From the NCBI RefSeq assembly GCF_004010195.1, contig NC_057718.1, forward strand, positions 43,461,970 through 43,525,969: a stretch of 64,000 nt of DNA, given 5' to 3'. The notes under the pieces were generated by a model, which was given only the letters and a program-made list of their open reading frames with translations, was not told the DNA's origin and did no database searches. Position numbers and translations under genes: made by a program. Below, in pieces: positions 4,246 to 56,267 of the stretch. Numbering within the stretch: position 1 is the first letter of the stretch; every line of letters starts with the position of its first letter. This DNA is from Chiloscyllium plagiosum. Taxonomy: Eukaryota.

Positions 4246-5740
4246 CATCTTCAACTCTCCCCCCCCCCACACCCCTGAATCTTTTTGCATTTTTTTAATG
4301 CTAATATCTTCTCCAATGTTTTCATGGGATAGTTTTGTACATTCTTGGGCTGTGGTCTCTACCTCTTCTGTTCTCAATAAGGTGAAACAACTGGCCTCGG
4401 TCTCATCTCTTTACAATCCAAAAAACAGCAGTTATGTCACTTCTTAGCTTTCTGCCTTTCAGTGAGGCCAGTCCCATCTTACATAAGTGCGGTTCATTAT
4501 CCAGTCCCTCTATTGCATCAGTCATTGTGGTCGCTTTCCCTTATCATTTCAATAGCATATCTCTTCTGTACTATGGGTATCAGAACAGTACAGTGTAATC
4601 TAAGTGTGTTCACATTACTGATTTATAAAGTCATCGGATTACATTACATTATTTTGGCTTAATGTTGATCTTATAATTCGTCTCAACAGCTGAAGTATTT
4701 TTCTCACTGAGAGCATTGTTGCGTTAGTTTCAAATTATTTTCAATTTAAATGCCCAGATCTCTTTCAATTTATTTGCACGTTATTTCCATTTTAGTGATA
4801 ATTCTTTCCTAGGTACTCTATCCCTTCTGAAAATTTTGCGTTTTTCTACAACATTAAATTGTCTCTGCTCCTTCCTAAGTTTATTGAAATCTCCTGTACA
4901 TTATGGTGCTCTGCTTTGACATGGAGTGCCACCATGAGTTTTGTATCAAGTGCAATAGTAGCAGTTGTGCCTGTGACTCTTTACGTCATGAAGATAGAAA
5001 ACAAAATAGGTTACAAAATACGCTATCCAGATGGTGCCAATCTGTGTTCTATCAGACTCTTGGTTCTTTAAATTCACCTATTGCATATCCATTGTAGAAT
5101 AGTTCCAGTAATTCTCATTAGCTGTATTTTCAGATCTGGCCTTTCATGACATACTATCTCAAATTCAAAACCCCCAGCTTCATGACCTCATTCTGATCAA
5201 GCTCCTTCTTTACCCCTTTAAATAAAATCATAAAGTTTAATTGATCATGTGCCCCCTCATTAAGCCATATTTATTATGTTTTATTATTTCAACTCTATCC
5301 AAATTCACCATGATCTTATCTTGAATAAGTTTTTTTTTAATGTACACATAATGGCTACAATTTCCTCAGGAACTATAGATACCTTTGTTTTAGGTATATT
5401 AGCTGCCTGCCTTCAGTCCCAGGTACCACATTAATATTCAGTGCCTTCAGGAAGATTTGAGCTAGAATTCTTACAATTTTCTCTCTTGCTACTACTTTAA
5501 GGATCCTTGGCTGTGTCTTATGTGGCTCCTGAGATTTATTTACCTTGAGTTAGGATAGTTGTTCTGCACCTATGCTGGTAATAATATAAATCATGTCTAA
5601 CATTACATCAGTGAAACACTCATTTCCTCTTGAGATGAAATATCTTAGCTGACTGCTTGTTGTTAAAAATGGAGGCAAAAAATCTTAATTAACATATTTG
5701 CAGCCCCATGTTTCATAGGTTCACACTCAGTTATGCTTTT
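4245..5740 (-). mobile_element. Highly decayed CR1/L2-type LINE RT remnant
   Basis: Plus strand shows reverse-complement LINE signatures: aatgcccagatctctttc, gagttttgtatcaagtgcaa (rc ~FADD region), atcagaacagtacagtgtaatctaagtgtg (rc ~LxYCxxFW). Confidence 0.5.
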
Positions 5741-5990
5741 AGTGGCTGATACATGGTGAGTTCCAGTGACCTATACTGATGACCCCCCAGAGGTGGATAT
5801 AGCTGAGCTGTTGGGGAATATGCATGAATCCTGTGACAGTGCATCCTCAGAGGGAGTGACTCCTTTTGAGGTGTCTTTGCCCTTCTCTGACATAATCTCT
5901 TGAAGAATGCCAGAAAGACCTAGACAATATGAATTACAACTGACAAGGTGAAAAGATTCGAAGACATTCTTGTGCAGATCATATTTCAAT

Positions 5991-6310
5991 TCATAGAGTC
6001 TATGGAATAAAACCCTTTGGTCCAATTTGTCTGTGCCAACCAGACATTCCAATCTGACCTAGTCCCATTTGGTCCATATCCCAGAAACCCTCCTTATTCA
6101 TGTACCCATTCAGGTGCCTTTTAAATGTTCTAATAGCAGCCACTTCTTCTGACAGCTTGTTCTATATGTGCACCACTTGTTACCCCTCATGTCCTTTTTA
6201 AATCTATCTCCTCTCATCCAAACTAATGCCATCTAGTTTTGGACTCCCCCACCGCAGGAGAAAGACCTTGGCTATTCACCCTTTCTATACCCCCCATGAT
6301 TGTATAAACG
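5991..6310 (-). mobile_element. CR1 LINE 3' end fragment
   Basis: Reverse complement matches the 2640-2980 end of the plus-strand CR1 (tcatagagtc...gacctagtcccattt...ctagttttggactcccc). Confidence 0.85.
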
Positions 6311-16731: not shown

Positions 16732-17125
16732 GGGAAGTGATGATGTAGTCACAATATTACTGGACTACAATTTAGAATACCAAGCTAATGTCCTGGGGAC
16801 ATGCATTCAAGTCCCGGCATGTTAGATGATGAAACTTGGATTTAAGTTAGGAAAGAAAAAGCTGGAGTTAAAAAAGCCATCCCCATGGTGACTATGCAAC
16901 AATTGTCATTCATTCTAAAAGCCTACTTGGTTCACTAATGCACTCTAGGGAAGGAAACCTGACATCCTTACCTGGTTTGGCCTACATGTGAATCCAGATG
17001 CACAGCATTGTGTTTGACTTAACTGCTCTCTGAAATGGATTAGCAAGCCATACAGTTCAAGAGCAATTTAGCGACGAATAACAAGTGATGGTCTTGCCAG
17101 TGATATGCCATGAAAGTATCAAAAA
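16732..17125 (+). mobile_element. tRNA-derived SINE (same family as 34190, 48482, 53962)
   Basis: tRNA-like head and shared core ggttcactaatg...tagggaaggaaa..cttacctggt.tggcctacatgtga.tccaga. Confidence 0.75.
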
Positions 17126-18690: not shown

Positions 18691-20854
18691 GACTATTTCT
18701 GATTTCCTGAAAATGTTTAAACCTCGATGGTGCCTTGCATTATAAACCATCAGCCTTTACTTTGGTGGTTCAGTTAAAAAAAAAGACAAGTCTATTTAAA
18801 AGTGAACAAGGACTTTATTGCAAGTGTAATGAATATGGAACAGTCAACTACATTGAATAAACTATACAATTTTCTACTTGTGTGTTATAATTGCAAATGA
18901 TTAAAGTAAGCATGATTTCAGATATGTTACAAATGGTTATGACAATTGTAGTAATAAGTAAGTGTGCTCTTTATCCCCATTGCTTAATGATTTCCATCTG
19001 AATTTGTAACTGCTTCATAGACAAGTGAATTGTGGCCACTTCTACAGGTTTTTGTCATTAATCTTATATTCATCCTGCTAAATACTGCTATCATAATTCT
19101 CTGTGATAAATCTAAAGCATTACTGCAATTAAGAGGCTAGATCATAAATGTGTCTGACAAAATAGGCTCAGACGTTGTCCCACCCAAGCTCAAGTTATTA
19201 AGAGGGAAGGTTGACCACCCATGCTATAATTTTGAAAGTTTTCCTAGACTGACAACATGGTAGTTTATCTTGGTGTCCCACAGGACAGATTTCCACAGGG
19301 GTTCTCCCACTGTCATAATGTAGTGGAATTGATACTGAAACCTCAGAAACTAAGTGTAATTACCGATTTTCCTACTTCTCCTTGGTTTTTACGGTTCTTC
19401 CTTATGGCTACAGAGACAAACGGGAGAAACTCTGCAAAATTTTATTTCAGGTTCAATCATTAGGTGTTAAGGAAGGGCAGAATTCAAAATTAGAACCCAG
19501 CATTTCAACTAGACACCAATAGGATTGAAACTTGAAGTAACCCTTCTGGCTTGTTTCCAATTGTAAATTGATGAACAACTCAATGTTGTCCCTATTATCC
19601 CTCTCCTTGATTTCCAGGATAGTGTTAAAATTATGAATGCACTTATTATATGTATGTGTTGGATTTAGTGGGCTTGACAGGGGTTTGTGAACTGATGACG
19701 AATCTACCAGTTCTGTGGTAGGTGGGGGGGTGCTGACTGAATTAAAGCCACTGCCAAATCCAACACAGTTCATAGGACAGCACTTGGGAGTGCAAGGGAG
19801 TGAGTGGATTCTATTCAGTGCCTGAGCCAGCACTAAATTACATCGCAATTAGGGATAACCAAAATCAATTGGCTCATTTAAGCACCTAAATGATATCACA
19901 CTGCTAGTTAATGGTTCTTGCATCAAACTCTCCCATTCTGCAACCTTAATTGAGGAAGCTTTCCTGAGGTTGGAAGTATAACCTGGGTAGTTCTGCCAAA
20001 TTCTGCCACATTGCTATTATCATGCCCTCTCCAATGGGTTCAATTCAGTACAGCCTTTAGTCTGAAAGGAAATGCTATTATGAACTTGCAGTTCACATTC
20101 GATTGTTGAAACTGTCATGGCTAGAGGGCATGAAGAGAAATCCCAAAGAAAACTATTCTCTTCTATGGTTTCATGCTTAAATTATATTTCTTTTAGAAAT
20201 GGACAATCTTGCTGAACTCTTAAAATAGCTGAGGCTAATCATACGATCTTATTTCCAGATGTTTCTGAACCACCTGCATTGTATTGTTATTCCAGCTAAA
20301 GCTGATGCAGAGGGCTTTGAGATGGGCATCTGCCTCCAGGCAGCTGGGGGAAACAAAACATCTAAACCCATTGTATCAAAGTGGCCACTTACACTTTTGC
20401 AGTTTTGCCTTAAACTTATGATGGAATCTCTGATGGAACAGGTAAAGCTACATTATTAGCATAAAGACTCTCCAATGAACCCTCTGAAATGGGCCATCAG
20501 CACCACAAATGCTTGTCTTTGAACACAGGACTGAAATTCAAGCTTGATAATGTGCTAACTATACAATGATCCTAATTCAATTGATATCTAGACAAAAAGA
20601 AAGACCTGGGCTGAGTTGGCAGCCTTCCTCAGAATCTCCAGTTCTGTTTCCAAGCTGTTGGCAGGAAAAAGGCTTACACTTTGCCAACAAGAAGGAAAAC
20701 TACTGAATCCAGCTGAATGAAGAACCCGGTATTAGATACTGGTCACCAGGAAGCTATAATTCAAGTGAATTAACTTTTTAAGTACATTTGGATTCATCAA
20801 ATTTATGATTTATGATCTATCTACTCACATTCCGATCTTATTTTGTTTTCCTGA

Positions 20855-21130
20855 ATCATAGAATTCCCACAGCGCAAATAGAGGCCATTCAGCCCATCAT
20901 GTCTGCATCAACGTTTGAAAGGCATCCCACCCAGGCCCACCCTATCCTTGTAATCCCACGGTTAATCCACCTAGCCTTCACATCTTTGGACTGTAGGATG
21001 AAACTGGAGCAGATCCACACAAAACAAATGGAGAGAATGTGCAAATTCAGCACTGATAATTTTCCAGTGTTGGAATCAAACCCTAGTCCCTCGTGCTGTG
21101 AGGCAGCAGTGCTAACCACTGTGCCATTTT
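20855..21130 (-). mobile_element. HE1/V-SINE-like tRNA-derived SINE
   Basis: rc: tggcacagtggttagcactgctgcctcacagc...gggtttgattcca...gaatttgcacattctctcc...aaagatgtg; CR1-like tail; matches 49857-50152. Confidence 0.85.
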
Positions 21131-21139
21131 GTCACCCAT

Positions 21140-21268
21140 AAAGCTTGTGCACTTGGCATTTCCAATCAGTCTCCCGTGCAAGAACTAACCAGGCCCGTGT
21201 CTGCTTCGCTTCTGGAATCAGACAAGAACCAGGCTTGTTTTTTTGTCAGACTTAGTATGGCCATAGGC
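21140..21268 (-). pseudogene. 5S rRNA pseudogene, copy A
   Basis: rc: gcctatggccatact...ttgtctgattccagaagcgaagcagacacgggcctggttagttcttgcacgggagactgattggaaatgccaagtgcacaagcttt aligns end to end with vertebrate 5S; many substitutions and an A-run expansion. Confidence 0.85.
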
Positions 21269-22270
21269 TTGCATTGTGAATGAAGTAGCAAAACAATTAA
21301 CCCATGTAATGAATATTTAGGTAATAAATCCAATGTTTTATTTCATCTGAAGAATCTTTTGTTGTAGGTTTGTTTCAAAAATTGGAATCCGAAAACCAGG
21401 ATTTGATGGATACATTTTGTCTTACTTCAGTGAAGAATGGGAGTTAAAGTGGAAGTGAGTAAATCAAACAGTGTCTTGCTGCCTACGGCTTAAGAGGGGA
21501 AAAACATCCATTATTTAAATTAAGGAGCAAAATACTGCAGGTGCTGGAATCAGCACTGAAAACAAAAAAAAATGTGAAAAATCACAGCATATCAGGAAGC
21601 ATCCACAGAGAGAGAGCAAGGTCATTTTTTGAATATAGATGACTCTTCATCAGTGTTGACGTTAAGTGGTCTCCTCCAAAAAAAACCAAAGCGCACATCA
21701 TACCTTTGACAAAGTAAGATTTTGCTGAAATCCAAGTAAACTATATCAACTTCATGGCCCTCGTCTATACACCTGGGTTAGAATAGTGCAGTTTCCCATT
21801 CAGTAAAATAGTTCGTTGAAAAGCAGGTTAGTTAATAAAACATTATTGAAATAAATCAGAAAAAGACACGAAATATGACAGTACAATATTTTTTCACCAT
21901 AACATTATGGGTAGACGCCCAAATTCAAGCTTGTTAAATTGCTTAACTATACAATGATCTTAAATCGATTGATGTCCAGAGGAAGAGAAAGACTCTGGGC
22001 AGTCTTGCTCAGAATCTCCATTTCTGTTTCCAAGGTTTTGGCAGGAAAAATGCTTACACTTTGCCAACAAGAAGGAAAACTATTAAATCCAGCTGAATGA
22101 GGAACCCAGCAGTGGACGCTGGTTGCCAGGAAGCTATAATTCAAGTGGATTCACAGAAATGGGGAGAATGTGCAAATTCAACACAGACAGTTTCCCAAGG
22201 CTAGAATCTAACACCAGTCTCTAGTGCTTTGAGGCAGCAGTGCTAACCACTGTGCCATCTTGTCACCCAT

Positions 22271-22398
22271 AAAGCCTACTGCATCTGGTATTCCCAGGCA
22301 GACTCCCATCCAAGAAGTAACCAGGCCTGTGTCTGCTCTGCTTCTGAGATCAGACAAGAATCAGTCTTTTTTTTTGTCAGGTTAGTATGGCCACAGAC
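22271..22398 (-). pseudogene. 5S rRNA pseudogene, copy B
   Basis: rc: gtctgtggccatactaacctgac(a)9gactgattcttgtctgatctcagaagcagagcagacacaggcctggttacttcttggatgggagtctgcctgggaataccagatgcagtaggcttt; A and C boxes recognisable, CpG-decayed. Confidence 0.9.
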
Positions 22399-22749
22399 TT
22401 GCATTGTGAATGGAGCATCCCACCCTGACCCATTTTATCCATGCAACCCTGAATAGACCTGCACAAAGTGAGTAGGCCGGTTAAAGGTTACAAACCTTTA
22501 CAGTTGGAACAGGCTTTGCCATGGTGATTTATCTACATTCCTGCATTTTTATTTTCACAACCAGTCAGGAAAAGTGGGCAGAATGACACACTGAATCTAT
22601 CATTAAAAGAATTTCTCATTGAAGGGAGGGTGAAAAATACATTGATTTCTGAGGCTGCAGTAACCACTGGAAATGAAAGGAAATGAGGGAACTTAGTTCC
22701 CTGGGTTTTAGACCTTTTCGTCCTGCTGCAAGATCTATTAGATTGAAGT

Positions 22750-26403: not shown

Positions 26404-27701
26404 TACTGAGGCAAAATGAGGTGAATTTTTAACATGCCATAGAAATGAGGTTGGAGATGGAATAGTCAGGAAAGGGAAACACCATTGAAATGGGCTCCCC
26501 GATACTGTTCCAGCTCGAGCCAACTTTACCAAGACCATGCTGTCAGAGGAAACCTCTACTCTTGCAACCTCAGTGTCTTTGCTAAGAGCTTTCTTTGTGC
26601 CTTCCCTACTCCCAGTCTGACAGCTTGTGTTCCATAACTTCCAACTCCATAAGGCTTGGCAATTCACATTTTCCTGAGCAACCAGGGCGTGGTAGCTCAA
26701 CAACCAGCCCCTCCACTCCCACTCCAGCCCAGTGACTGAGTCTTCACCAGCCCCCACCCTATCCTGGCCACACAGGTCTCTCCTGCCTGGACATTGCCCC
26801 CTTGTTGGTGCCACTCACTTTCTTGCTTCTACTCCAATCAGAAACTACTTCTGTTCACATTTACTCCTGACAGGTTCACCAGTGGACCAAGGTTAACAGC
26901 GTCTTATTGAAGAAGCAGCTCCTCAGAGATTCCAACTTTTCCCTATGTGGGGATAACTTTCACCCATTATTCAACCAGTGATTTATTTTCCCTGATGGTT
27001 GCTGGGGTGAATTCACCTGCTGTCCCCATGCATTTTGAGTGCAGCATAGGTTGTCCCACAAGGTTGTGGGTTAAAGTGTAAGATTTGCTTATTTTACCTT
27101 CTTTCTCTGCCAGTACTCTGGGTTGCCATATTTGAACCATTGGTAGCATGCTCCTACCAGTCATTAAGGCCAACACTCCATTGCTTCTGTGAGAGTGTTA
27201 GAGAGTCCTTGAAGCATTTTGTTTGTCCTGGAATAGTGTTTCTGGAGCTGCACTGGAGTGCTTGGGGTACTGGCTTCAAAATAAATGCTAGCATTTGTCC
27301 AAATCTTCCTCGCTGATTTTTAATTAAACCAAATCTAGTGGTACAATGCAGAGCTTATTCAGATGTGGTCAATTAGCAATTCTATTGCTGAGTATTACCA
27401 GCTCAATTCCATTATCACAGAAAGTATTAGTTACATTCCTTTTATTTTGAAGTTTGACTTTTCCAATACCAAACTGGCCCCTTCCCAAATTATGCCCTTC
27501 AGCAATAATTTAGTCAAACATCAGTAAGTCCAGAATTTTAGCCTTAAGTTCCACTCCTCACAAAGCCTGAAAATTCATCATACCTGTTCTCATGAATCTC
27601 AGTGGGCTTCCTATCCTTCATGCCTCCTCACATCAAACGTGCTGCCATATAGTTGTCCTTGTATTCCAGTTGAAAACCCAAAAGATGGACATACAAACCC
27701 A

Positions 27702-27886
27702 AGTATGTTGGACTGTCACTTTAAGACTCTGATCACATGGCACAATAATATGATCATTAACCATTTTGGAGGGAATCAGCTTAGTCTCACTTGCTGCCCT
27801 ATAGAGAGAACACTTCATATAATCTATCTGCTACTATTGTTAAACACTGTTTCCTATCCTTCTTGAAATGTAATGCAAGAAAAAAA
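27702..27886 (+). mobile_element. 5' LTR of Gypsy element 1, followed by a decayed PBS at 27888-27898
   Basis: 27704-27817 aligns with 32000-32111 (about 78% by hand alignment; ctgtcactttaaga, ccattttggagg, cttgctgcc, gaacac). tagcaactagg resembles the Gypsy PBS tggcgacgagg after CpG decay. Confidence 0.8.
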
Positions 27887-28040
27887 CTAGCAACTAGGAT
27901 AAAACTGCTTCGAGATCCAGCAGATGAACCCACTGGTGCATCAACAAATAAACAGAATTGTGACCCTCACTTCAGAACCCAGAGGTACTTTGTTAAAAAC
28001 AACAGAAGAAATCATAGCCGTTACTGCTTCACCGAAACAG

Positions 28041-28505
28041 ATAGTCATGGAGTCACACATCATGGAAACAGACCCTTTGGTCCCACTCACTCAGGCCGAC
28101 CAGACATCCCAACCAGATCTAATCCCATTTGCCAGCTTTTGGCCCATATCCCTCTGAACTCCTCTTAATCATGTACCCATCCAGAAGCATTTTAACTGTT
28201 GCAATTGTACCTGCCTCCATAACTTCCTCTGCAGTTTATTCCATGCATGCACCAACCTCTGCATGAAAACGTTACCTCTCAGGTCATTTTTAAATCTTTC
28301 CTCTCTCACCTTATACCAACACCTTCAGTTTTGGACTCCTGCATGCTGGGAAAGAGACCATTTGTCCTAATATCCTATCCATATCCCTCATGATTTTATA
28401 AAGCTCTATAAGGTCACCCCTCAGCCTCTGAATCTCCAGGGAAAGAAAGCTCCAGCCTATTCAACCTCTCCTCACAACTCAAACTCTCTAGTCCCAGAAC
28501 ATTCT
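28041..28505 (-). mobile_element. CR1 3' end inserted in the Gypsy leader
   Basis: Reverse complement of the same CR1 3' end as 2540-2980 (catggaaacagaccctt...ataaggtcacccctcagcctct). Confidence 0.9.
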
Positions 28506-28764
28506 TGAAAATGGGTAAAAATAGTAAAGAATTTATATCAGGGAATGGTTGAACAATGCTGAAGAAGCTTTCCACATGCTTTATTCTGAAGGAACACTGC
28601 AACAAGTATCCTGCATAGAGGGAATTGTTTTGACCTATGGATGTAGACTCGAAAGAAAAGGTAGTCTCAAAAGTACCATGTCTTACAGGGAAGACATGAG
28701 GCAGTGTTCAAATTTTCATTTTGTATTATGCTATGCAAGCCTTTCCATTTAAAAAAGTAAGAAA

Positions 28765-30335
28765 ATACTGGTGTTGTACTACTGTATGATCAAAATACAG
28801 AGAGCTGAAACTCATACTATTCTATTCTATCCCATACTGAGATTCTATTATTTTGTTCAAGCTAACAAAATTGAAGCAGATAGGGTTGTCCTTGCATTTG
28901 TTAATATTATGGGGGGGGGGGAGCTTTTAAACTTCTGTAATGATTGGAACCATGTCAGGGTGAATCTCATTGACTATTAGATCCTTGATTGGGTGGTTAA
29001 CCCAGGTCAATCAGGGAGTCCTGGCTGACAGAAATTCACAAGGTCTTCTCAGTTGAGAGACTAGCTTTGAGCTGGCTAATCATTGCCCATTTTCAATGAA
29101 CATGTAAATAAAAGGTGACTTGGTGATAGGATATCAGCCTTTGTGCAGTTATTTCACCTTCTAAGGAGTCTGGCACAGCCAGAGAAACTAGATTTCAAAA
29201 CCAACAAAGAAATGGTAGGAACCCGACAGAACCATTTTCATCCAAACCATTGGTGATTAGTGAAAGGTTCAGGCTTCACTAACACAACCAACACAGTGCT
29301 TAATCTGTTTCCAAGCTTAGAAGAATTTTAAAGAAGTTAACAGAATATTATGAATTCAGAGACAACTAATCATGCTATCAGAGACAGACTGCCACGTGGT
29401 TTAAGATGTGAACTAATCCAGGAGAGATTACTGATGGAATGGAATCTGGACTTACAGAAAGCACTAGAAATAGTAGTCTTGATGGAACTAGTAGCTAAGG
29501 AGGCTTCTCAACTAATCTTGTGTATGAGTGTCAACAAAATGGTGGCTGAGAGAGTTCACGAAATGGCGGCAACGACGAGCACCAATGCAGATTAAAAACT
29601 GCCATCAGCATGCAAAAGCAGGCCGTGCAACAGCAAATTTATGTTGTAAAGAAGCTGCATGTAGAAACTATGAAACAAAGGGCACATTGACTGGGTTTGT
29701 TTGAGTATGAAACATCAATAGCATACAGCAAACGTACAGAAACCAAAGAGCGAAAACAAAATCAACACAGAACAAAAAGGACATTCGAAAACTAGACTAT
29801 AGTTCAAAGAGGAGTTGTTGTTAAACAAGCTGGCCATTGTTGGTGATACTAACTGATACTGGATTCCCTTACTGAAATGGCAAACCCATGAGCATGGAGG
29901 CAGACTCTGGTGTAGCAGTTTCACTGATACCTGTGGAACAGATGCAGCTGCGTCACATTGTGCTGCAACTCTCAAACGTTGCACTAAGAACATATAGAGA
30001 TGAAGTGGTGCCTTTAAAAGGTTGTAGGAATATGAATGTTCTAATATATGGTCAGTCTGAAGCTTGGCCTTACACATTACCAAAGGAAATCTTTAAGCTT
30101 TTTTAATAGGAACATGGTTGAAGAAAATAAAACTTAATTGGATGGAAGTAAATCACCTTTCAGATTCTGAGAGTGATCCGTCACAAATTCTAAAGAAACA
30201 TGCCATTTTTTCAATGGGGATCTGGGAAGCATGGAAATGATAGCTGTCAAGTTGAAAACAAAATATGAGAATCAAGCAAAATGGTTGAGTTGCAAGCCTA
30301 GATTAGTGCCTTATGCAATCGGACCAAAGGTTGAT
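28765..30335 (+). mobile_element. Gypsy element 1: gag, aspartic protease and start of RT, all decayed
   Basis: YFVQANKI...IMGG / LLRSLAQPEK...HFHP.PLVISERFR...IRDRL..GLRCELIQERLL..LDLQKALEI; double zinc-knuckle remnant ~29600-29700; MEADSGVAVSLI (D-S-G at 29903-29911); WLKKIKLNW; KPRLVPYAIGPKV. Confidence 0.92.
28936..29156 (+). mobile_element. Solo LTR (221 bp) nested in gag
   Basis: TG...CA termini, AATAAA at ~29107, flanked by acttc/ccttc; removing it rejoins gag as AFKLLRSL. Confidence 0.85.
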
Positions 30336-31842
30336 GGAGAAATCTAAGCATGTAAGAAGTGTGAATCAAACCAGGATAGCACTTTATTAAGCCATACAAT
30401 TAATCTGCTTGAGAAGATTCATAGTGATAACCACACCTGTGACCTTGGTAATTCAAGAGTTCATCTGATAATTGCAGCCTTGCTTATGACCTTCAAGCAA
30501 AAGCTTAATGATCAGGAAACACAGAATAATGATACAGCCATCTTGCATTGTGAAATTAGCAGATCAGATACAGCAGTGCAATGGATAGAAGGATCCACTC
30601 GATTTCAGCTTGCTGCCAAGTTTGAAGTGAACCATCATTGAGATGGTTATTCATGGGCCTAAACCAGAAGATAGTAGTAGATATACTTGAGGTGTTGGAG
30701 ACCAACAAACCTGTGCTGCCTTGAAAGTGAGTACTATTCTGGTACTTCAGAAGGGTTTCAGAGCAAGGGAGCTGACGAAGGCAACACCATCACTCTACAC
30801 TGTGAACTTGCTAAGCCTGATCCTCCTATAGAGTGGAAAAATGAGACTGCGGTATTTCATCTCAGTGTCAAGTACAAAGTAAACAAGTGGGTTCTGTTGC
30901 TGAATTGTCTGTCTGCAATCTGAAACAAGAAGATGCAAGAGAATATGCCTGTGATTCAGAAGATCAACACACCCCAGCTCCACTTAAAATAAAAGAAAAG
31001 CCAGTGGTGTTCATTAAATCTTTGGATACCATTGTTGGGCAAGGGAGAGGAATGATTACACTGGATTGTGAATCTGAATAAAGCATGATGTGGTTCTTGC
31101 TTCAAGTGACAAATCTGAATGACTACATGCTGGAAAAGCACTTTGTTTTATTGTACATGATCTGAATAAAAGTGATGAGTTAGTGACATAGGCACCAGTA
31201 GAGCAAGTGCCAAGGTTGTCATCCCACATCTGAACATCAGAGTTTCAAAAAGGCAAAAGAGCACAAAGATTAAAAAAAGCAAAAAGGCACCTTTTAAATG
31301 CACACTTTCTTATGAAAGTATTACTGGACAGGGCTGTTAGTAGAAGGCAATGAATGACTTGAGGTATTCAATGTTGGCCAAAAATACATTCTTAAATTAA
31401 AGAAATAGCTCTTTCAGTTATTGGAGAAGTAACCTCAGTTTGAAAGCCTCATTGATGGTGAAAGAAAAACTGGCAGAAATCACAAAGCAATGGAAAAAAG
31501 TGGTGGTGATAGTGGGTGAAGAGATTGTACTAAACTGTGTACCTCTAAGCCTGTTTCTTTAGTGCAGTTGCTTAAAGATGACAGAGGAATTAACAAACGT
31601 AACATGTGAAATATCTCAGCAAAGGACTATAAACAAATTTATAATTCATCAAGTCACACAAAGTACTTGAGAGAGTATGCATATGAAACAGAGACTTCTA
31701 AAATGTTTTTTTAATAGTGGTGGTAAACCAACACAAAAACTGAAGAGAAAGATACTGCTGTTTTTAAATGTGAAACAGAATAGCCAGCAAAAAGTTAGTC
31801 TGAAAATAAGGGAATGGCCAGAAAAGCAATGAGAAAAATAAA
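30333..31842 (+). pseudogene. OBSCN: Intronless obscurin-like tandem I-set Ig domain retrocopy fragment (about 7 domains, first and last partial)
   Basis: TFKQKLNDQETQNNDTAILHCEISRSDTAVQW; EMVIHGPKPEDSSRYT*GVGDQQT; EGNTITLHCELAKPDPPIEWK; GSVAELSVCNLKQEDAREYACDSEDQHT; EKPVVFIKSLD..MITLDCE; FKCTLSYES; GEEIVLNC..SKP; EEKDTAVFKCETE. Ig call is firm; OBSCN rather than OBSL1/titin is from recalled repeat style. Confidence 0.8.
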
Positions 31843-31981
31843 CAGATGCCTGAGGTCCTCTGACAGCCATACCAGAACATTGACATCTTCCAGAACACCT
31901 GACCTCTAGCTGTTATGTATATGATTGCAAATATTGTGAATTGTTCTCATTGCAGCAACCTCTGATATAAAGGGGGAGGGA
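31843..31981 (+). mobile_element. Gypsy element 1 integrase C-terminal tail and polypurine tract
   Basis: ccagaacattgacatcttccagaacacctgacctctag can be read as a CpG-decayed RYPER.R.PPERLDL* pol ending (inference); PPT aaagggggaggga at 31969-31981 directly precedes TG. Confidence 0.75.
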
Positions 31982-32115
31982 TGTTTTATATTATGTAAAT
32001 ATGTTGTGCTGTCACTTTAAGAATCTGACCATATGCAAGATGTTGATGTCATTGGCCATTTTGGAGGAAATCAGTTTAGCCTTGCTTGCTGCCTTGCAGC
32101 GTGAACACCTCCAAC
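31982..32115 (+). mobile_element. 3' LTR of Gypsy element 1 (3' part lost or interrupted)
   Basis: Begins TGTT right after the PPT; direct repeat of 27704-27817. Confidence 0.8.
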
Positions 32116-34189: not shown

Positions 34190-34680
34190 CAGAAAGTGAT
34201 GATTTAATGAGATTGTCATTGAACCAGCAATTGAGATGCCAAAAACAGTAAGTTTTAGAATATGGGTATGAATCTCACCGTGGCTGCTTGTGGAATTTGA
34301 ATTGATTTAATATACGAGAAATTCAAAACTACTCTCAGTAATAATGATTTGGAGATGCCGGTGTTGGACTGGGGTGTACAATGTTAAAAATCACACAACA
34401 CCAGGTTATAGTCCAACAAGTTTAATTGGAAGCACACAATCACCTGATGAAGGAGCGTCACTCCGAAAGCGAGTGTGCTTCCAATTATACCTGTTGGACT
34501 ATAACCTGGTGTTGTGTGATTTTTAACTCAGTAATAATGACTAGGAAGCCATTTATGATTATGATAAAAGACATCTGCTTCACTAGTGCTGTTTAGGGAA
34601 GGAAATCTGCCATCTTTAAATGGTCTGGCCAATTGATGACTAGACTGAAGTGTCTCACCAGCAAGACATGCCCATGAGAA
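34190..34680 (+). mobile_element. tRNA-derived SINE interrupted by a palindromic mini-element
   Basis: ggaatttgaatt..., cttcactagtgctgtttagggaaggaaatctgccatc, same family as 16732. Confidence 0.65.
34348..34526. mobile_element. Palindromic Penelope-terminal-repeat-like mini-element
   Basis: Inverted arms ~34384-34438 and ~34473-34527; ctcagtaataatga duplicated on both flanks; CTGATGA...GAAA core at 34444-34468. Confidence 0.8.
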
Positions 34681-48481: not shown

Positions 48482-48800
48482 GGGGAGGTGATAGCCTAGT
48501 GGCATTATCACTGGACTGTAAATCCAGAGACCCAAGTCATGTTCTGGGCACCCAAGTTTGAATCCTTGCATTGGCAGATGGTGGATTTGAATTAAATCAA
48601 AAAATTCTGAAACTAAGAGTCTAGTGACTCTGAATTGTTGATTGTCTAAAAATAAATCTGGTTTGCTAAAGTCCTTTAGGGAAGGAGACTGTATTCCTTA
48701 CCTGGTCTGGCCTACAGGTGACTCCAGACCCACAACAAACTATCCTCCAGGCAATAAATGCTAGGCTAGCCAGCGATGCCCTCATCCTGTGAGCAAATAA
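48482..48800 (+). mobile_element. tRNA-derived SINE
   Basis: ggaggtgatagcctagtggcattatcactggactg...gtttgaatcc...tagggaaggagactg..cttacctggtctggcctac. Confidence 0.85.
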
Positions 48801-51422: not shown

Positions 51423-52201
51423 GTTGGGCTGAGTCGAAATGGTAAAAGTATAACAAGCTTTAAAAACTGCAAGTTAATCATACAGTCCCAGTAGACAATA
51501 CTGCTATTAAATCTGTTTACATTAATTAGCAGCAGATTTACAAACATTGTGGTCTGATCCAGAGGCGCAGATAGAAATCGTGAGCCCCCTTACTACTCCT
51601 AGCCCAGAGCCCCGGCTGTACTCAGGCTCTTGGCCCCCAGCCAAAGTGCAGTGGCCCCACCACCTAGAACCCTGGTCATTGGGCGCTGTTGTTAGTCCCT
51701 GTACTAGGCCCTGGTTGGATCCATGCCTTGTGTTACTGTGTGAATTCTTCTTAGTTGTAGTCAAAAAGGAGCTAGCAGTAGAGTCACGTTCCTTGCACTA
51801 CTTAACCCTATTCAAACTACTTACAAATAGTTTATGTTTAAAATGCTTTTCATTGAGAATGTTTTGCTCTAATAATGCACTTTAGAAAGTAATGGAAGTT
51901 GTGAAAGAGGTTTGGTTGAATTGGGTGCTTGAGATGTGTAAAGCATATTGATTTTTTTTTCAACTCTGACAACTGGCTTTGAATTGATTTGTGGAGTTCA
52001 GTTATTTTCAGATATTTTCAAATAAATGGACATGAGTTAATTAGGATTTTGCAACAAAATTGTTATTTATAAACTTACTCTTTAACTGGTTACTTAAATA
52101 CAATGTTAATGGAAGAGTAAATATTATGCTCACAAGTGGTACCACAAACGATTCTAGTAGTCAGACTGGACCAACACTTATGGGACAAGCACTACGTGTC
52201 A

Positions 52202-52580
52202 TGTTAAAGGTAATAGTCTCAGAATGACCTGTTCTACGACCTGTGGTACGATCTTATACTCCACAACCACCGGATGAAGGAGCATCCGATTATCCGAAAG
52301 CTAGTGCATGCAAATAAAACTGTTAGACTGGTGTTGTGTGCTTTCTAACTCTGCCCATTAGGGATTGATTAACTCTGGGTTTGTTTATTTAAAATAGTAA
52401 TTTATTAAAACAGTAAAACAAGTTACGAAGCAAACATTATAGTCACCCAAATGATTTCTGTATATTTAGCTTGCAGGTTCAAATCAGACTTACTGCCAGG
52501 CAAACTTGCAACATTGTTTACACTCAGCACATGGAGTCCCTAAAGATGGACTCTTTTAAAGACAATGTACACATACAACA
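52202..52580 (-). mobile_element. 3' LTR of Gypsy element 2, with a mini-element inserted at ~52220-52350
   Basis: Follows the PPT (ttcccctcctctcc on +, 52581-52594) and starts TGTTG on minus; shares taatttatt..aaaaca.taaaaca, caagtta.gaagcaa, agcttgcag, gcacatg and terminal acaaca with 55066-55273. Confidence 0.75.
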
Positions 52581-52700
52581 TTCCCCTCCTCTCCGAAGAT
52601 AATTTAACTGTTCACAATAACAGTGAGCCTATGAGTCTCTGTAACATCTGGGTAATTGGCAGGTACATCCAGACCTTGCGATGGTGGTTTTGTCTGGAGG
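52581..52700 (-). mobile_element. Gypsy element 2 integrase tail and PPT
   Basis: Minus frame TTIARSGCTCQLPRCYRDS* resembles a CpG-decayed TRSGR...P.RY.D pol ending; PPT ggagaggaggggaa. Confidence 0.75.
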
Positions 52701-53395
52701 TGCCTATCATTTTCACAGTAATCAGTGATATTATCTCTCATTCCTGTTTGTGTGTTAAGTTTTCCTTTCATGGACTGAAGTTGCTGTTCCAGAATTTGCT
52801 TTATCTTGATGAACTGCAGCCAGGATGGTTCTTTCCTGATTATCTATTGATTGATTTCATTCCTCAAGCTGTTTGAAGTGGATCTTCTTGGCATTTATTG
52901 TTCTGTTTTTAAGAATTTCCAGCTCATTTTAATGCTTCTGGTTTTAGATCCTGGATTCTTCTGATTCTATTCTATCAACGTGTTAGCCTTCTGTTGGTCC
53001 AAAATATGTTTCTCGTTAATGACCTGCTCTCTTAACCTGAGTAATAATATTCTCAGAAGTCAAGTAACACCAGGTTATTGTCCAACAGGTTTATTTAAAA
53101 TCACAAGCTTTTTGAGCAGAGCAGCCCTTCGGATTTCTGACTTTGCTCATCCCAGTCCAACACTGGCATCTCCACTTCAATAATGTTCTCAAGTATGGAT
53201 TTATCGTAAGCTAGTTATTCAGCCTTTTCCTCTTGAACTTTAACTTTTCTCTCCGCAGCAGTAGGGCTGAGATTTTAGCTCCTCTAATTCAGAAGAAAGT
53301 GAAGAGTTCCGTTCTTCTTTATTCAATTCTTCAAATGTTTCTTGAATAGTGTGCTGCAGTTTGTGTTGTGTCTCTGATGTTTGGCTGATGCAATA
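52700..53395 (-). pseudogene. Decayed coiled-coil coding fragment of unknown origin inside Gypsy element 2
   Basis: SETQHKLQHTIQETFEELNKEERNSSLSSELEELKSQ / TAAERKVKVQEEKAE*LAYDKSILENII / RLREQVINEKHILDQQK / RIQDLK.KH*NELEILK / KQILEQQLQSMKGKL; no RT, RNase H or integrase motifs. Confidence 0.55.
53056..53178. mobile_element. Penelope-terminal-repeat-like mini-element with a 13-bp TSD
   Basis: aataat(a/g)ttctca at 53043-53055 and 53179-53191; aacaccaggttattgtccaacagg...cccagtccaacactggcatctcc. Confidence 0.85.
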
Positions 53396-53419
53396 GATTG
53401 TTATGAATGTTAGGTATTA

Positions 53420-54800
53420 ACATTACAAGGGTAAAAGTGGTAGTATTAGACATGCTGGTGTAATTGTATTTGCTGGTCCCAGCAGTATTAATAGTGCGGA
53501 CTATCAATGAAATTTACTTACTTGCACTTTGAACAGTATGTAGTTTTTCCACAATATTGACCTTGTGAAACATGTGTTCGCACTTTTTGTCCAACTAGGT
53601 GGATTCTTAGATTCTAGTTCGTCAGCCAGTTTATGTGTGCACCTCCGATGGAACACCAGATGTTCTTTATTATAGTCTGGAGATACTCCTTTGTGTGCTC
53701 TCTTTGGGTTAGCTCTTTGTAGCTGCATCAATCTTTTTCTCTGGTGCACTTCTCAGCTATGTGACTTGGAAAATTAATTGAAAGCTGGGTATTTTCTTGG
53801 TGCATGCAGAAGGCCGCAGCTTCCTCATGTCTTGCTATGTTTGGGCATTCTAATGATGGTGTCAATTTTTGAATATATACTTTAGAATCTGTAACTTTTG
53901 TTGACCTGTGAAGATCACTTTGTACATCCATTCTTCAGGAGCTCTTTGACACTATATCACATAGGAAGCAATGGCCTAATTGTATTATCACTGGATCCAT
54001 AGACCCAGGTAATGTGGTCCCGGGTTTGAATCCTGACCTGATAGATAGTAGAATTTGAATTCAATAAAAATCTGGAGTTAGGAGTCTAACAGTGACAACA
54101 AATCCATTGCTAATTGTTGGAAAAACCCATCTGGTTCACTAATGTCCTTTAGGGAAAGAAACTGCCATCTTTACCTGGTCCGGCCTACATGTGACGTCCG
54201 ATCCATAGCAATGTGGCTGAATCTTAATTGCCCTCTGGGCAATTAGAGATGGGCAATAAATGCTGATCTAGCCAGTGACACCATCCTCCTGTGAATGAAT
54301 TTTTAAAAATTTGATTTGTCTAGCAAATTCTTTTGGAAAGCTTCCATGTGAGTGGGTGTGATCATTGACTTAACAGTCCTGATTGGTAGCTCTACATTTT
54401 TTTCAAAGAACCATACAATGAACCCTTTTCTCTGCATCTGCTCATGAAGTGTTCTATGAATTCTGTAGGCTTCTGTTGAAATGACATGTATTCCAGACAA
54501 TGAAGATGAATATTTAATCTGACTCTGAAATGGTCTACTAATGTGTCACTTTTGATCCATACATTTTGGAGATATTTTAAACTGTTCAGCTGATAATCCA
54601 GACTTGTTAGGTCTGTCACCTGTCAATCCCAATTACTAGGTAAACCTTAATGGCTTGCTTTTCTGCACTGAACTCACCTGAGTCTGAATGCTGCTTAAAT
54701 ATTTTAAATTCTGTTAAGAAGTCTGTTATGTTCTAATTTAAATGAGGAAATTTTGTTGATATTCTGGCAATGTGATTTTGGCCTTCCCTTGCTTGCTATC
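53420..54800 (-). mobile_element. Gypsy element 2 gag with zinc-knuckle remnant, interrupted by a SINE
   Basis: EFKIFKQ...KQAIKV; DHFRVRLNIHLHCLEYMSFQQKPTEFIEHFMSRCREKG; MEAFQKNLLDK; YSVKELLKNG; T*GSCGLLHAPRKYPAF. Confidence 0.8.
53962..54302 (+). mobile_element. tRNA-derived SINE inserted in gag
   Basis: Same family as 48482 (ggttcactaatgtcctttagggaaagaaactgccatc). Confidence 0.88.
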
Positions 54801-55065
54801 AATCTGGAACACACACTGATATTTTGCTTTTCTCAAATGTATTGAACAGGCCTTGCAATGGGAATTTGTCTGTTTACCAGAAAGCTGTGTTTTCAACACA
54901 GTCCAACACTGTAATGAAGAAAGACATTGAGGCTTGTCTCATGCATTTTAGCATAACTGAAGACTGACAAGGATGTCTTTCTCCATTGGCTAACTTGCTT
55001 ATTCATGGTTCAAGCGCAATAGGCCTCAACAGCATGATATTTTTTATTGTTGTTTTTCATGACAA

Positions 55066-55273
55066 GTTAATGATAATAATCACTCATTAAGGATTGAATA
55101 GTCCAACGTTTTAATTTATTTAAAACAATAAAACACATGGCAAGTTATGAAGCAAGTCTTACACCAACTAAGCTTGCAGATCCAGAGCAAATTAAGTTCA
55201 CGGCAGGGTCATCACATTGTATCCACACTGCACATGTAATCCTTCAAAGGTGTCATTCTCTTAACAAACAACA
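55066..55273 (-). mobile_element. 5' LTR of Gypsy element 2
   Basis: Diverged direct repeat of 52202-52580. Confidence 0.7.
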
Positions 55274-55531: not shown

Positions 55532-55589
55532 GTTTCAAAAACCTCTTCTGAAATATTAGAGCCATCAATCATGTTATACTGTTTAAATA

Positions 55590-56267
55590 TAGTTAAGAAT
55601 CACATAACACCAGGTTACAGTCCAACAGTATTATCTGGAACCACTAGCTTTCGGAACGCTGCTCCTTCATCAGGTAGCTGTGGAGCAGGACCATAAGACA
55701 CAGAATTTATGGCAAAAGATTACAGTGTCACGCAACTGAAATGATATGTTGAACAAACCTAGATTGCTGTTAAGTCTTTCATCTTTAGAATGGGTTGCAG
55801 GTTTCAGTTCATTAAGATGTAAATCCCAGAACTTCTTTTAAGTCACATTCTTGAGATAAGTTAAGAGTTTTATATGTGACCTATGAGTATTTCTCTACCT
55901 ACATTGAATGTGCCTGAAGCAGACATTAAGCTGCTTGAACATGATAATGCTAGTGTTCATGTCTGTTTCAGGGCCATACTCCTAATGGCAACATAAACAG
56001 ACTAAACACGTAATGGGCAGACTGTACTCTTTCTACATTAGGTTATAGTCCAACTGGTTTATTTGGAAGCACTAGTTCTCCATGCACTGCTCCTTCATCA
56101 TGTGGTTGTGGAGTATAAATTCTGTGTCTTATGGTGCTATTCCACAACCACCTGATGAAGAAGCAGTGCTCCGAAACCTACTGCTTCCAAATAAACTGTT
56201 GGACTATAGCCTGATATTGTGTGATTTTTAACTTTGTACACCCCAGTCCAACACCGGCATCTCCAAA
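55590..56267. mobile_element. Two Penelope-terminal-repeat-like elements (~55590-55875 and palindromic 56040-56267)
   Basis: Second copy has ~70-bp inverted arms (56041-56112 vs 56141-56211) and tctttctacatt duplicated at 56028 and 56268. Confidence 0.85.

Follow-up and report, generated by a model that had tools for sequence, protein, structure and literature searches.

The minus strand of the window, a stretch of 64,000 nucleotides from Chiloscyllium plagiosum contig NC_057718.1, carries a dead, decayed copy of a non-autonomous Gypsy family in which most of pol is replaced by coding sequence of the host gene CLIP1 (CLIP-170). The exons of this cargo stand in a permuted order, and the cargo ends on CLIP1 at the point where it starts; probably, it was copied from a back-spliced circular RNA (circRNA) during reverse transcription. 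Two further repeat families bear the same imprint, and the balance tips slightly towards the more general view that shark Gypsy elements copied circRNAs once around, within a limit set by RNase H, and amplified them into a fossil library about as old as the galeomorph radiation.

The element and its Gypsy family

The element, oriented on the minus strand from 55273 to 52197, has the two direct LTRs of Ty3/Gypsy elements and a polypurine tract (PPT) before the 3′ LTR, and retains the following features (window coordinates):

55060..55273, minus strand: 5′ LTR, about 214 bp, with 110/156 identity to the 3′ LTR; it also matches the LTRs of other copies
53500..55059, minus strand: leader and decayed gag, from tblastn with the complete Gypsy polyproteins P0122, P0131 and P0132 and a gag profile search
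53960..54311, unstranded: SINE-like repeat within gag, about 350 bp with approximate edges, matching 48491-48792, 16917-17032 and 34532-34630
53381..53499, minus strand: protease-end remnant, from the family alignment; the protease is largely deleted in the window copy
53179..53380, minus strand: CLIP1 cargo, first part, by exon mapping: exon B from nt 19, exon C and the 5′ half of exon D, spliced
53043..53190, unstranded: later short-repeat insert in the cargo, with a 12-bp target duplication (53190-53179 and 53054-53043, 11/12 matching)
52868..53035, minus strand: CLIP1 cargo by exon mapping, exon G from nt 31 and exon H nt 1-61
52868..52874, minus strand: backward joint from exon H to exon A, inside the common heptamer AAACAGC and 68 nt short of an exact back-splice
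52751..52874, minus strand: CLIP1 cargo, last part, by exon mapping: exon A nt 16-117 and exon B nt 1 to about 21
52629..52750, minus strand: last codons of pol, with the RSG..P..Y.D tail from 52676 and the stop, read directly in the sequence
52581..52594, minus strand: PPT, read directly in the sequence
52197..52580, minus strand: 3′ LTR, broken by a short repeat of about 100 bp at about 52352-52250

Gag begins near 54755, with its zinc-knuckle remnant near 53824-53740, and is split by the SINE-like insert, which is missing from the same point in the other family copies; in those copies, the region equivalent to 53381..53499 aligns with the protease end of P0131 and P0122. Repeats resembling the cargo insert occur at 55586-55651, 56014-56079 and 56223-56265, and about 440 bp of the cargo (the rest of exon D, exons E and F and the start of G) are gone from the window copy just upstream of 53035, adjoining that insert. 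The 5-bp flanks of the element match at 3/5 positions, and the tRNA primer site is decayed in the window copy. These data bear out most of the preliminary description, which had read here a diverged LTR pair (alignment score 30, above all 200 shuffles, with a mean of 10.8 and a maximum of 20), a gag with a zinc-knuckle remnant (which aligns with the Gag of complete Gypsy polyproteins), an insert flanked by a target duplication, a pol tail and PPT (legible from 52676 and at 52594-52581, respectively), and no RT, RNase H or integrase (no match inside the element, either with Pfam or in the comparison with Gypsy polyproteins). The cargo of about 0.55 kb with coiled-coil-like frames is likewise present, but it is only the remnant of a longer one, which measures about 1 kb in most family copies.

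Further copies, which had been proposed as a check, are numerous, with at least 198 candidate genome sites for the 3′ part of the cargo as query (40 scored, mostly about 70% identical) and at least 310 for a gag fragment; in 20 retrieved copies, the retained parts are always ordered LTR, gag, cargo, tail, LTR. A gag profile built from 10 fragments recovered 207 proteins at E 0.001 or better (the best down to 1e-35), and the long ones among them bear RT, RNase H and integrase in Gypsy order, with Pfam supporting the domain order PR-RT-RH-IN in P0132, P0149 and P0153; it is to elements of this organization that the gag and protease of the family are related. The Gag-Pol polyproteins P0131 and P0132 resemble the family in Gag, knuckle and protease end, and their termini have a comparable RSG..P tail; in contrast to the CLIP1 family, both keep RT and integrase (P0132 also RNase H) and lack a CLIP1-like stretch. 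Since the similarity of the Gypsy polyproteins, which extends over gag, knuckle and protease end, ceases at the cargo start, and a CLIP1-like stretch occurs in 0/151 of the Gypsy relatives from the gag profile at E 1e-3, the cargo replaces the region from the protease end to the last pol codons, and its being a normal part of an autonomous Gypsy pol is ruled out. Pfam detected nothing in the decayed copies, the only hits among 24 translated frames being Ig domains in the other element of the window, and no young or autonomous partner was identified in the C. plagiosum genome, where gag matches are short and mostly broken.

Some copies show additional rearrangements or neighbors: one copy is preceded, at a distance of a few kb, by a separate decayed Gypsy pol that retains pieces of RT, RNase H and integrase (L036:7054-9114), the H-A segment is inverted within another (L059:4882 and 5694-5829), and a third contains an additional H segment (L027:5462-5577). 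Elsewhere in the window, a direct repeat pair at 20534-22415 (20534-20774 plus 21026-21285 versus 21921-22415, 83% identical) was considered as the first Gypsy element and set aside; by eye it is not a Gypsy LTR pair, and its first copy is split by an insert.

The CLIP1 cargo and its exon order

The donor of the cargo is the host CLIP1. A profile of 15 single-frame cargo fragments gave two protein matches, both to shark CLIP1 (E 2e-26 and 5e-24), and Pfam returned scattered weak matches only for these fragments; the cargo at 53179..53380 shares 74% and 68% amino-acid identity with shark CLIP1 (E 2e-17), and the exon A match has an E of 2.6e-9 genome-wide. The host gene is located on G000:C25, and its exons, to which the letters Z and A-H were assigned in the present analysis, were mapped with GT-AG edges (Z 945 nt, A 117, B 58, C 84, D 157, E 166, F 216, G 138 and H 107). 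The Z|A and A|B edges are also present in RNA contigs, and the host protein over Z-H is 97-98% identical to the CLIP1 of bamboo and epaulette sharks. The specific exon mapping rules out a LINE ORF1 or a generic coiled coil as the cargo. A second CAP-Gly linker gene, presumably CLIP2-like, lies at G000:C28 39828438-39868758, with 38-82% identity to CLIP1 depending on the segment, and is not the donor.

The preliminary description had proposed that RNA coding for a host coiled coil was captured and took the place of pol, and with CLIP1 as the donor this proposal is sustained; the loss of introns, suggested there as a check, is seen in the copies, where CLIP1 exons are joined without intron sequence. 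Its view of an independent capture of a host mRNA holds for the host coding RNA, but the capture is one founder event common to a large family. The exon order, moreover, is permuted, for which a linear mRNA as template would need extra jumps and a circular RNA would not.

Aligned to the CLIP1 protein, the cargo first covers residues ~813 to ~1100, then goes back to ~773 and ends at 813. At the DNA level, it consists of exon B from nt 19, exons C, D, E, F and G, exon H nt 1-61, exon A nt 16-117 and exon B nt 1-21, free of introns, with the non-colinear order of H before A; H adjoins A within 10 nt in 18/19 copies in which both could be scored (31 examined). The start at B19 and the end at B21 leave an overlap of 3 nt, present at both ends of a cargo of about 1 kb, and in the window copy the cargo also ends at its starting point in exon B; no parent element sequence was recovered for these two switch points. 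This identity of start and end on CLIP1 amounts to one turn of a circle.

The joint between H and A lies in a perfect 7-nt match inside a longer imperfect repeat. It lacks 46 nt from exon H and 22 nt from exon A, so that the exact back-splice joint at the true splice sites is missing from the CLIP1 A-H family by a total of 68 nt; of 39 non-host sites scored for exon H, none retains it beyond nt 61, and of 39 scored for exon A, none retains its start before nt 6. A further 51 nt are missing from exon F, also at a short repeat, and the 68-nt and 51-nt losses both preserve the frame. The position of the H-A joint alone is weak evidence, because approximately 6-19% of random backward jumps at 7-nt microhomologies would fall within 68 nt of the exon edges (an estimate in which one downstream exon edge of the host mapping is 2 nt off). 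The coincidence of start and end, in turn, is strong evidence for a circular template. The cargo contains exons from within the proposed circle only: exons Z, I and J have no match in the window copy or inside the 30 other family copies, the one chance-level match of 34 nt to Z, in L031, being outside the element.

The reading frame of the cargo is continuous with the last ~35 protease codons in 2/12 copies shown and with the last 10-15 in about three more, and it extends to the RSG tail in 4/17 copies. This continuity suggests that the founder likely had one long frame comprising Gag, protease, cargo and tail.

Two further permuted cargos

A second repeat family carries exon Z of CLIP1, and a third permuted cargo, from another gene, is present in the window itself:

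L051, L052 and L063-L078, for example L072:4066-5100: copies of the exon Z family, by exon mapping
about 27700-32110, plus strand: other Gypsy-like element, with cargo at about 30340-31835, by exon mapping and with copies L096-L102

In the exon Z family (138 candidates), nt ~601-945 of the exon are followed by nt 1 to ~605, that is, a single exon of 945 nt, a multiple of three, is joined end to start. Among the 18 copies examined, seven could be anchored at the exon start and 11/18 could not; in 5/7 of the anchored copies, the 30 nt in front of the exon start agree in exact register with the end of the same exon, at 17-22/30 positions, compared with 7-12 for the exon that truly precedes Z and 6-13 for the intron. 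The sixth matches with a shift of 1 nt, and one of the seven does not fit. The carrier has no similarity to that of the A-H family, and its upstream flank, on which Pfam is silent, is by eye presumably a knuckle and protease. Acidic or unassigned stretches lie beside the cargo at L072:3700-4066 and 5100-6300, and likewise in L066, L069 and L074; these flanking stretches, common to copies, may be further captured host sequence.

The cargo of the element at about 27700-32110 consists of six exons, spliced together, from a multi-Ig gene of the titin/obscurin type (G000:C5 109245366-109317910) in the order 4′-5-6-1-2-3-4′. Of the five copies that span the joint, two (the window copy and L096) have it at the true donor and acceptor, and the other three (L098, L099 and L101) are deleted across it; the start and the end of the cargo share 7 nt. 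Its carrier matches neither the A-H nor the exon Z carrier, and the element is likely a third circRNA capture. The same imprint in three unrelated carriers, in which pol is replaced and the cargo begins and ends at a single point of the circle, points to a testable mechanism, in which template switching is limited to one turn.

Copying route, precedents and age

RNase H degrades the RNA behind the polymerase. On a circular template, this removal would make the reverse transcriptase run off after one turn, so that it must switch again, and copying of a circle under this limit predicts one full unit plus a few bases, as in all three families; a circle nicked once prior to copying would leave an indistinguishable product. 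For the CLIP1 A-H family, a 1043-nt circle of exons A-H would have been packaged alongside the element RNA, and minus-strand synthesis would have departed from the element near the pol end and entered exon B. After circling once, the enzyme would have found the template gone at its own entry point, through RNase H cleavage behind it or one prior nick in the circle, and would have returned to the element at the protease end. Later slips at short repeats may have deleted the 68 nt over the back-splice joint and the 51 nt in exon F, and the chimera, with its LTRs, gag, protease and PPT, would have been multiplied in trans to hundreds of copies before decaying. Under this scenario, CLIP1 gave two circles to two carriers, with the cargo in the protease frame in several copies, which might mean that CLIP1 circles were plentiful in the germline or were packaged there by preference or, alternatively, that the CLIP-170 coiled coil fused to Gag-protease aided the spread of the element. 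In eight RNA runs, consisting of contigs, which lose rare forms, or of thin poly(A) single-cell reads (raw runs with 23 and 0 reads), only forward joints were seen at exons Z-A-B. In RNA set X3, exon Z stands on a contig of its own, the depth of which is roughly double that of the Z-A link, an observation not counted as evidence. For neither of the two CLIP1 circles did the bordering introns of the present-day gene show inverted repeats with respect to each other.

The permuted order could also be obtained from linear CLIP1 mRNA through three switches, from the element to exon B, from exon A to exon H of another mRNA molecule at the common heptamer, and from exon B back to the element. The perfect 7-nt match within the longer imperfect repeat at the joint and the lack of any copy with the exact back-splice agree with such a route, and multiple switches are documented for LTR retrocopies by Tan et al. 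2016 (PMC5131818). However, entry and exit would have to coincide by chance within 3 nt on about 1 kb, and the same coincidence would have to recur in two other families with exact splice-site joints, which makes this route unlikely. A capture in linear order, permuted later at the DNA level by excision of a circle at the heptamer and recombination, or by tandem duplication and deletion, would account for the microhomology joint and the single turn, and the other microhomology deletion of the family, in exon F, is in line with it. Nevertheless, no linear-order family exists among the 31 mapped copies or in the searches with exons H and A, insertion by crossover should leave contiguous parental flanks, which the protease end on one side and the pol tail on the other are not, and the exact joints of the two sister families would stay unexplained, so we regard a DNA permutation as quite improbable. 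A linear RNA with repeated exons (a product of trans-splicing or of a rolling circle, or the transcript of a CLIP1 with a former tandem exon duplication) could place a non-colinear joint close to splice sites and would need no circle in the particle, yet it is the least probable of these routes, with just one exon A over the 78.6 kb that were covered of the host gene, five shark CLIP1 proteins aligning across 100% of the region, and no reason to stop at exactly one unit in three families.

With a circular RNA as the preferred template, the closest precedent is the set of mouse circRFWD2 pseudogenes (Dong et al. 2016, PMC4897178), comprising 33 high-confidence circRNA-derived pseudogenes near LTR sequence, the mechanism of which was left open. 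They are likewise intron-free, with a non-colinear joint, many copies from one circle, no poly(A) tail and an association with LTRs (MMERVK10C-int is marked in a figure legend). In contrast to this young mammalian case, the shark case involves Gypsy carriers at hundreds of sites and is much older, its cargo replaces pol between defined switch points, with start equal to end in three families, and a one-turn rule is absent from the main text of PMC4897178. The exact joint that defines the high-confidence class in that paper is lacking in the CLIP1 A-H family and present in both sister families; with its non-colinear order, the A-H family appears to work like a circRNA-derived retrocopy with an eroded joint. 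The other related system is the LTR-mediated retrocopy. As modelled in PMC5131818, the reverse transcriptase leaves the element RNA for a host RNA packaged with it and later returns, both switches being guided by short matches, so that host sequence takes the place of internal ORFs; the resulting chimera may then propagate as a non-autonomous element. The shark family agrees with that model in the replacement of internal ORFs by host RNA, presumably through switches at microsimilarities, and has intron-free host sequence between its LTRs in their place; it differs in that its template appears circular and its cargo is permuted, the words circular and circRNA being absent from the main text of PMC5131818. 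No precedent in sharks or Gypsy elements for circRNA capture, or for a one-turn rule, was found in the open-access literature. The one-turn imprint addresses the question of how circRNAs are written back into genomes, which PMC4897178 left open, and cargo captured between LTRs allows back-splicing to be dated in deep time without RNA. Checking its exon order is a simple screen, as ordinary retrocopy annotation can overlook a permutation.

The age of the captures was approached through residues at which carpet sharks differ from both catshark and sawshark: the copies favor the older state at 9/11 such sites, and those of the exon Z family at 11/14. Changes private to catshark or to sawshark are not shared by the copies, which favor the shared state at 16/17 and 6/7 sites, respectively. 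This pattern points to a capture that preceded the carpet-shark stem or took place early in it, which, on divergence dates, would be of the order of 200 million years ago. No purifying selection on the cargo was seen in the copies, in which deviation is about equal over the codon positions with base identity controlled. The copies decayed neutrally: they are 69-79% identical to the host exons, about 3% of the in-frame cargo codons are stops, and the family-wide differences from the host, in which host and element lineages are not split, comprise 34 synonymous and 37 non-synonymous changes.
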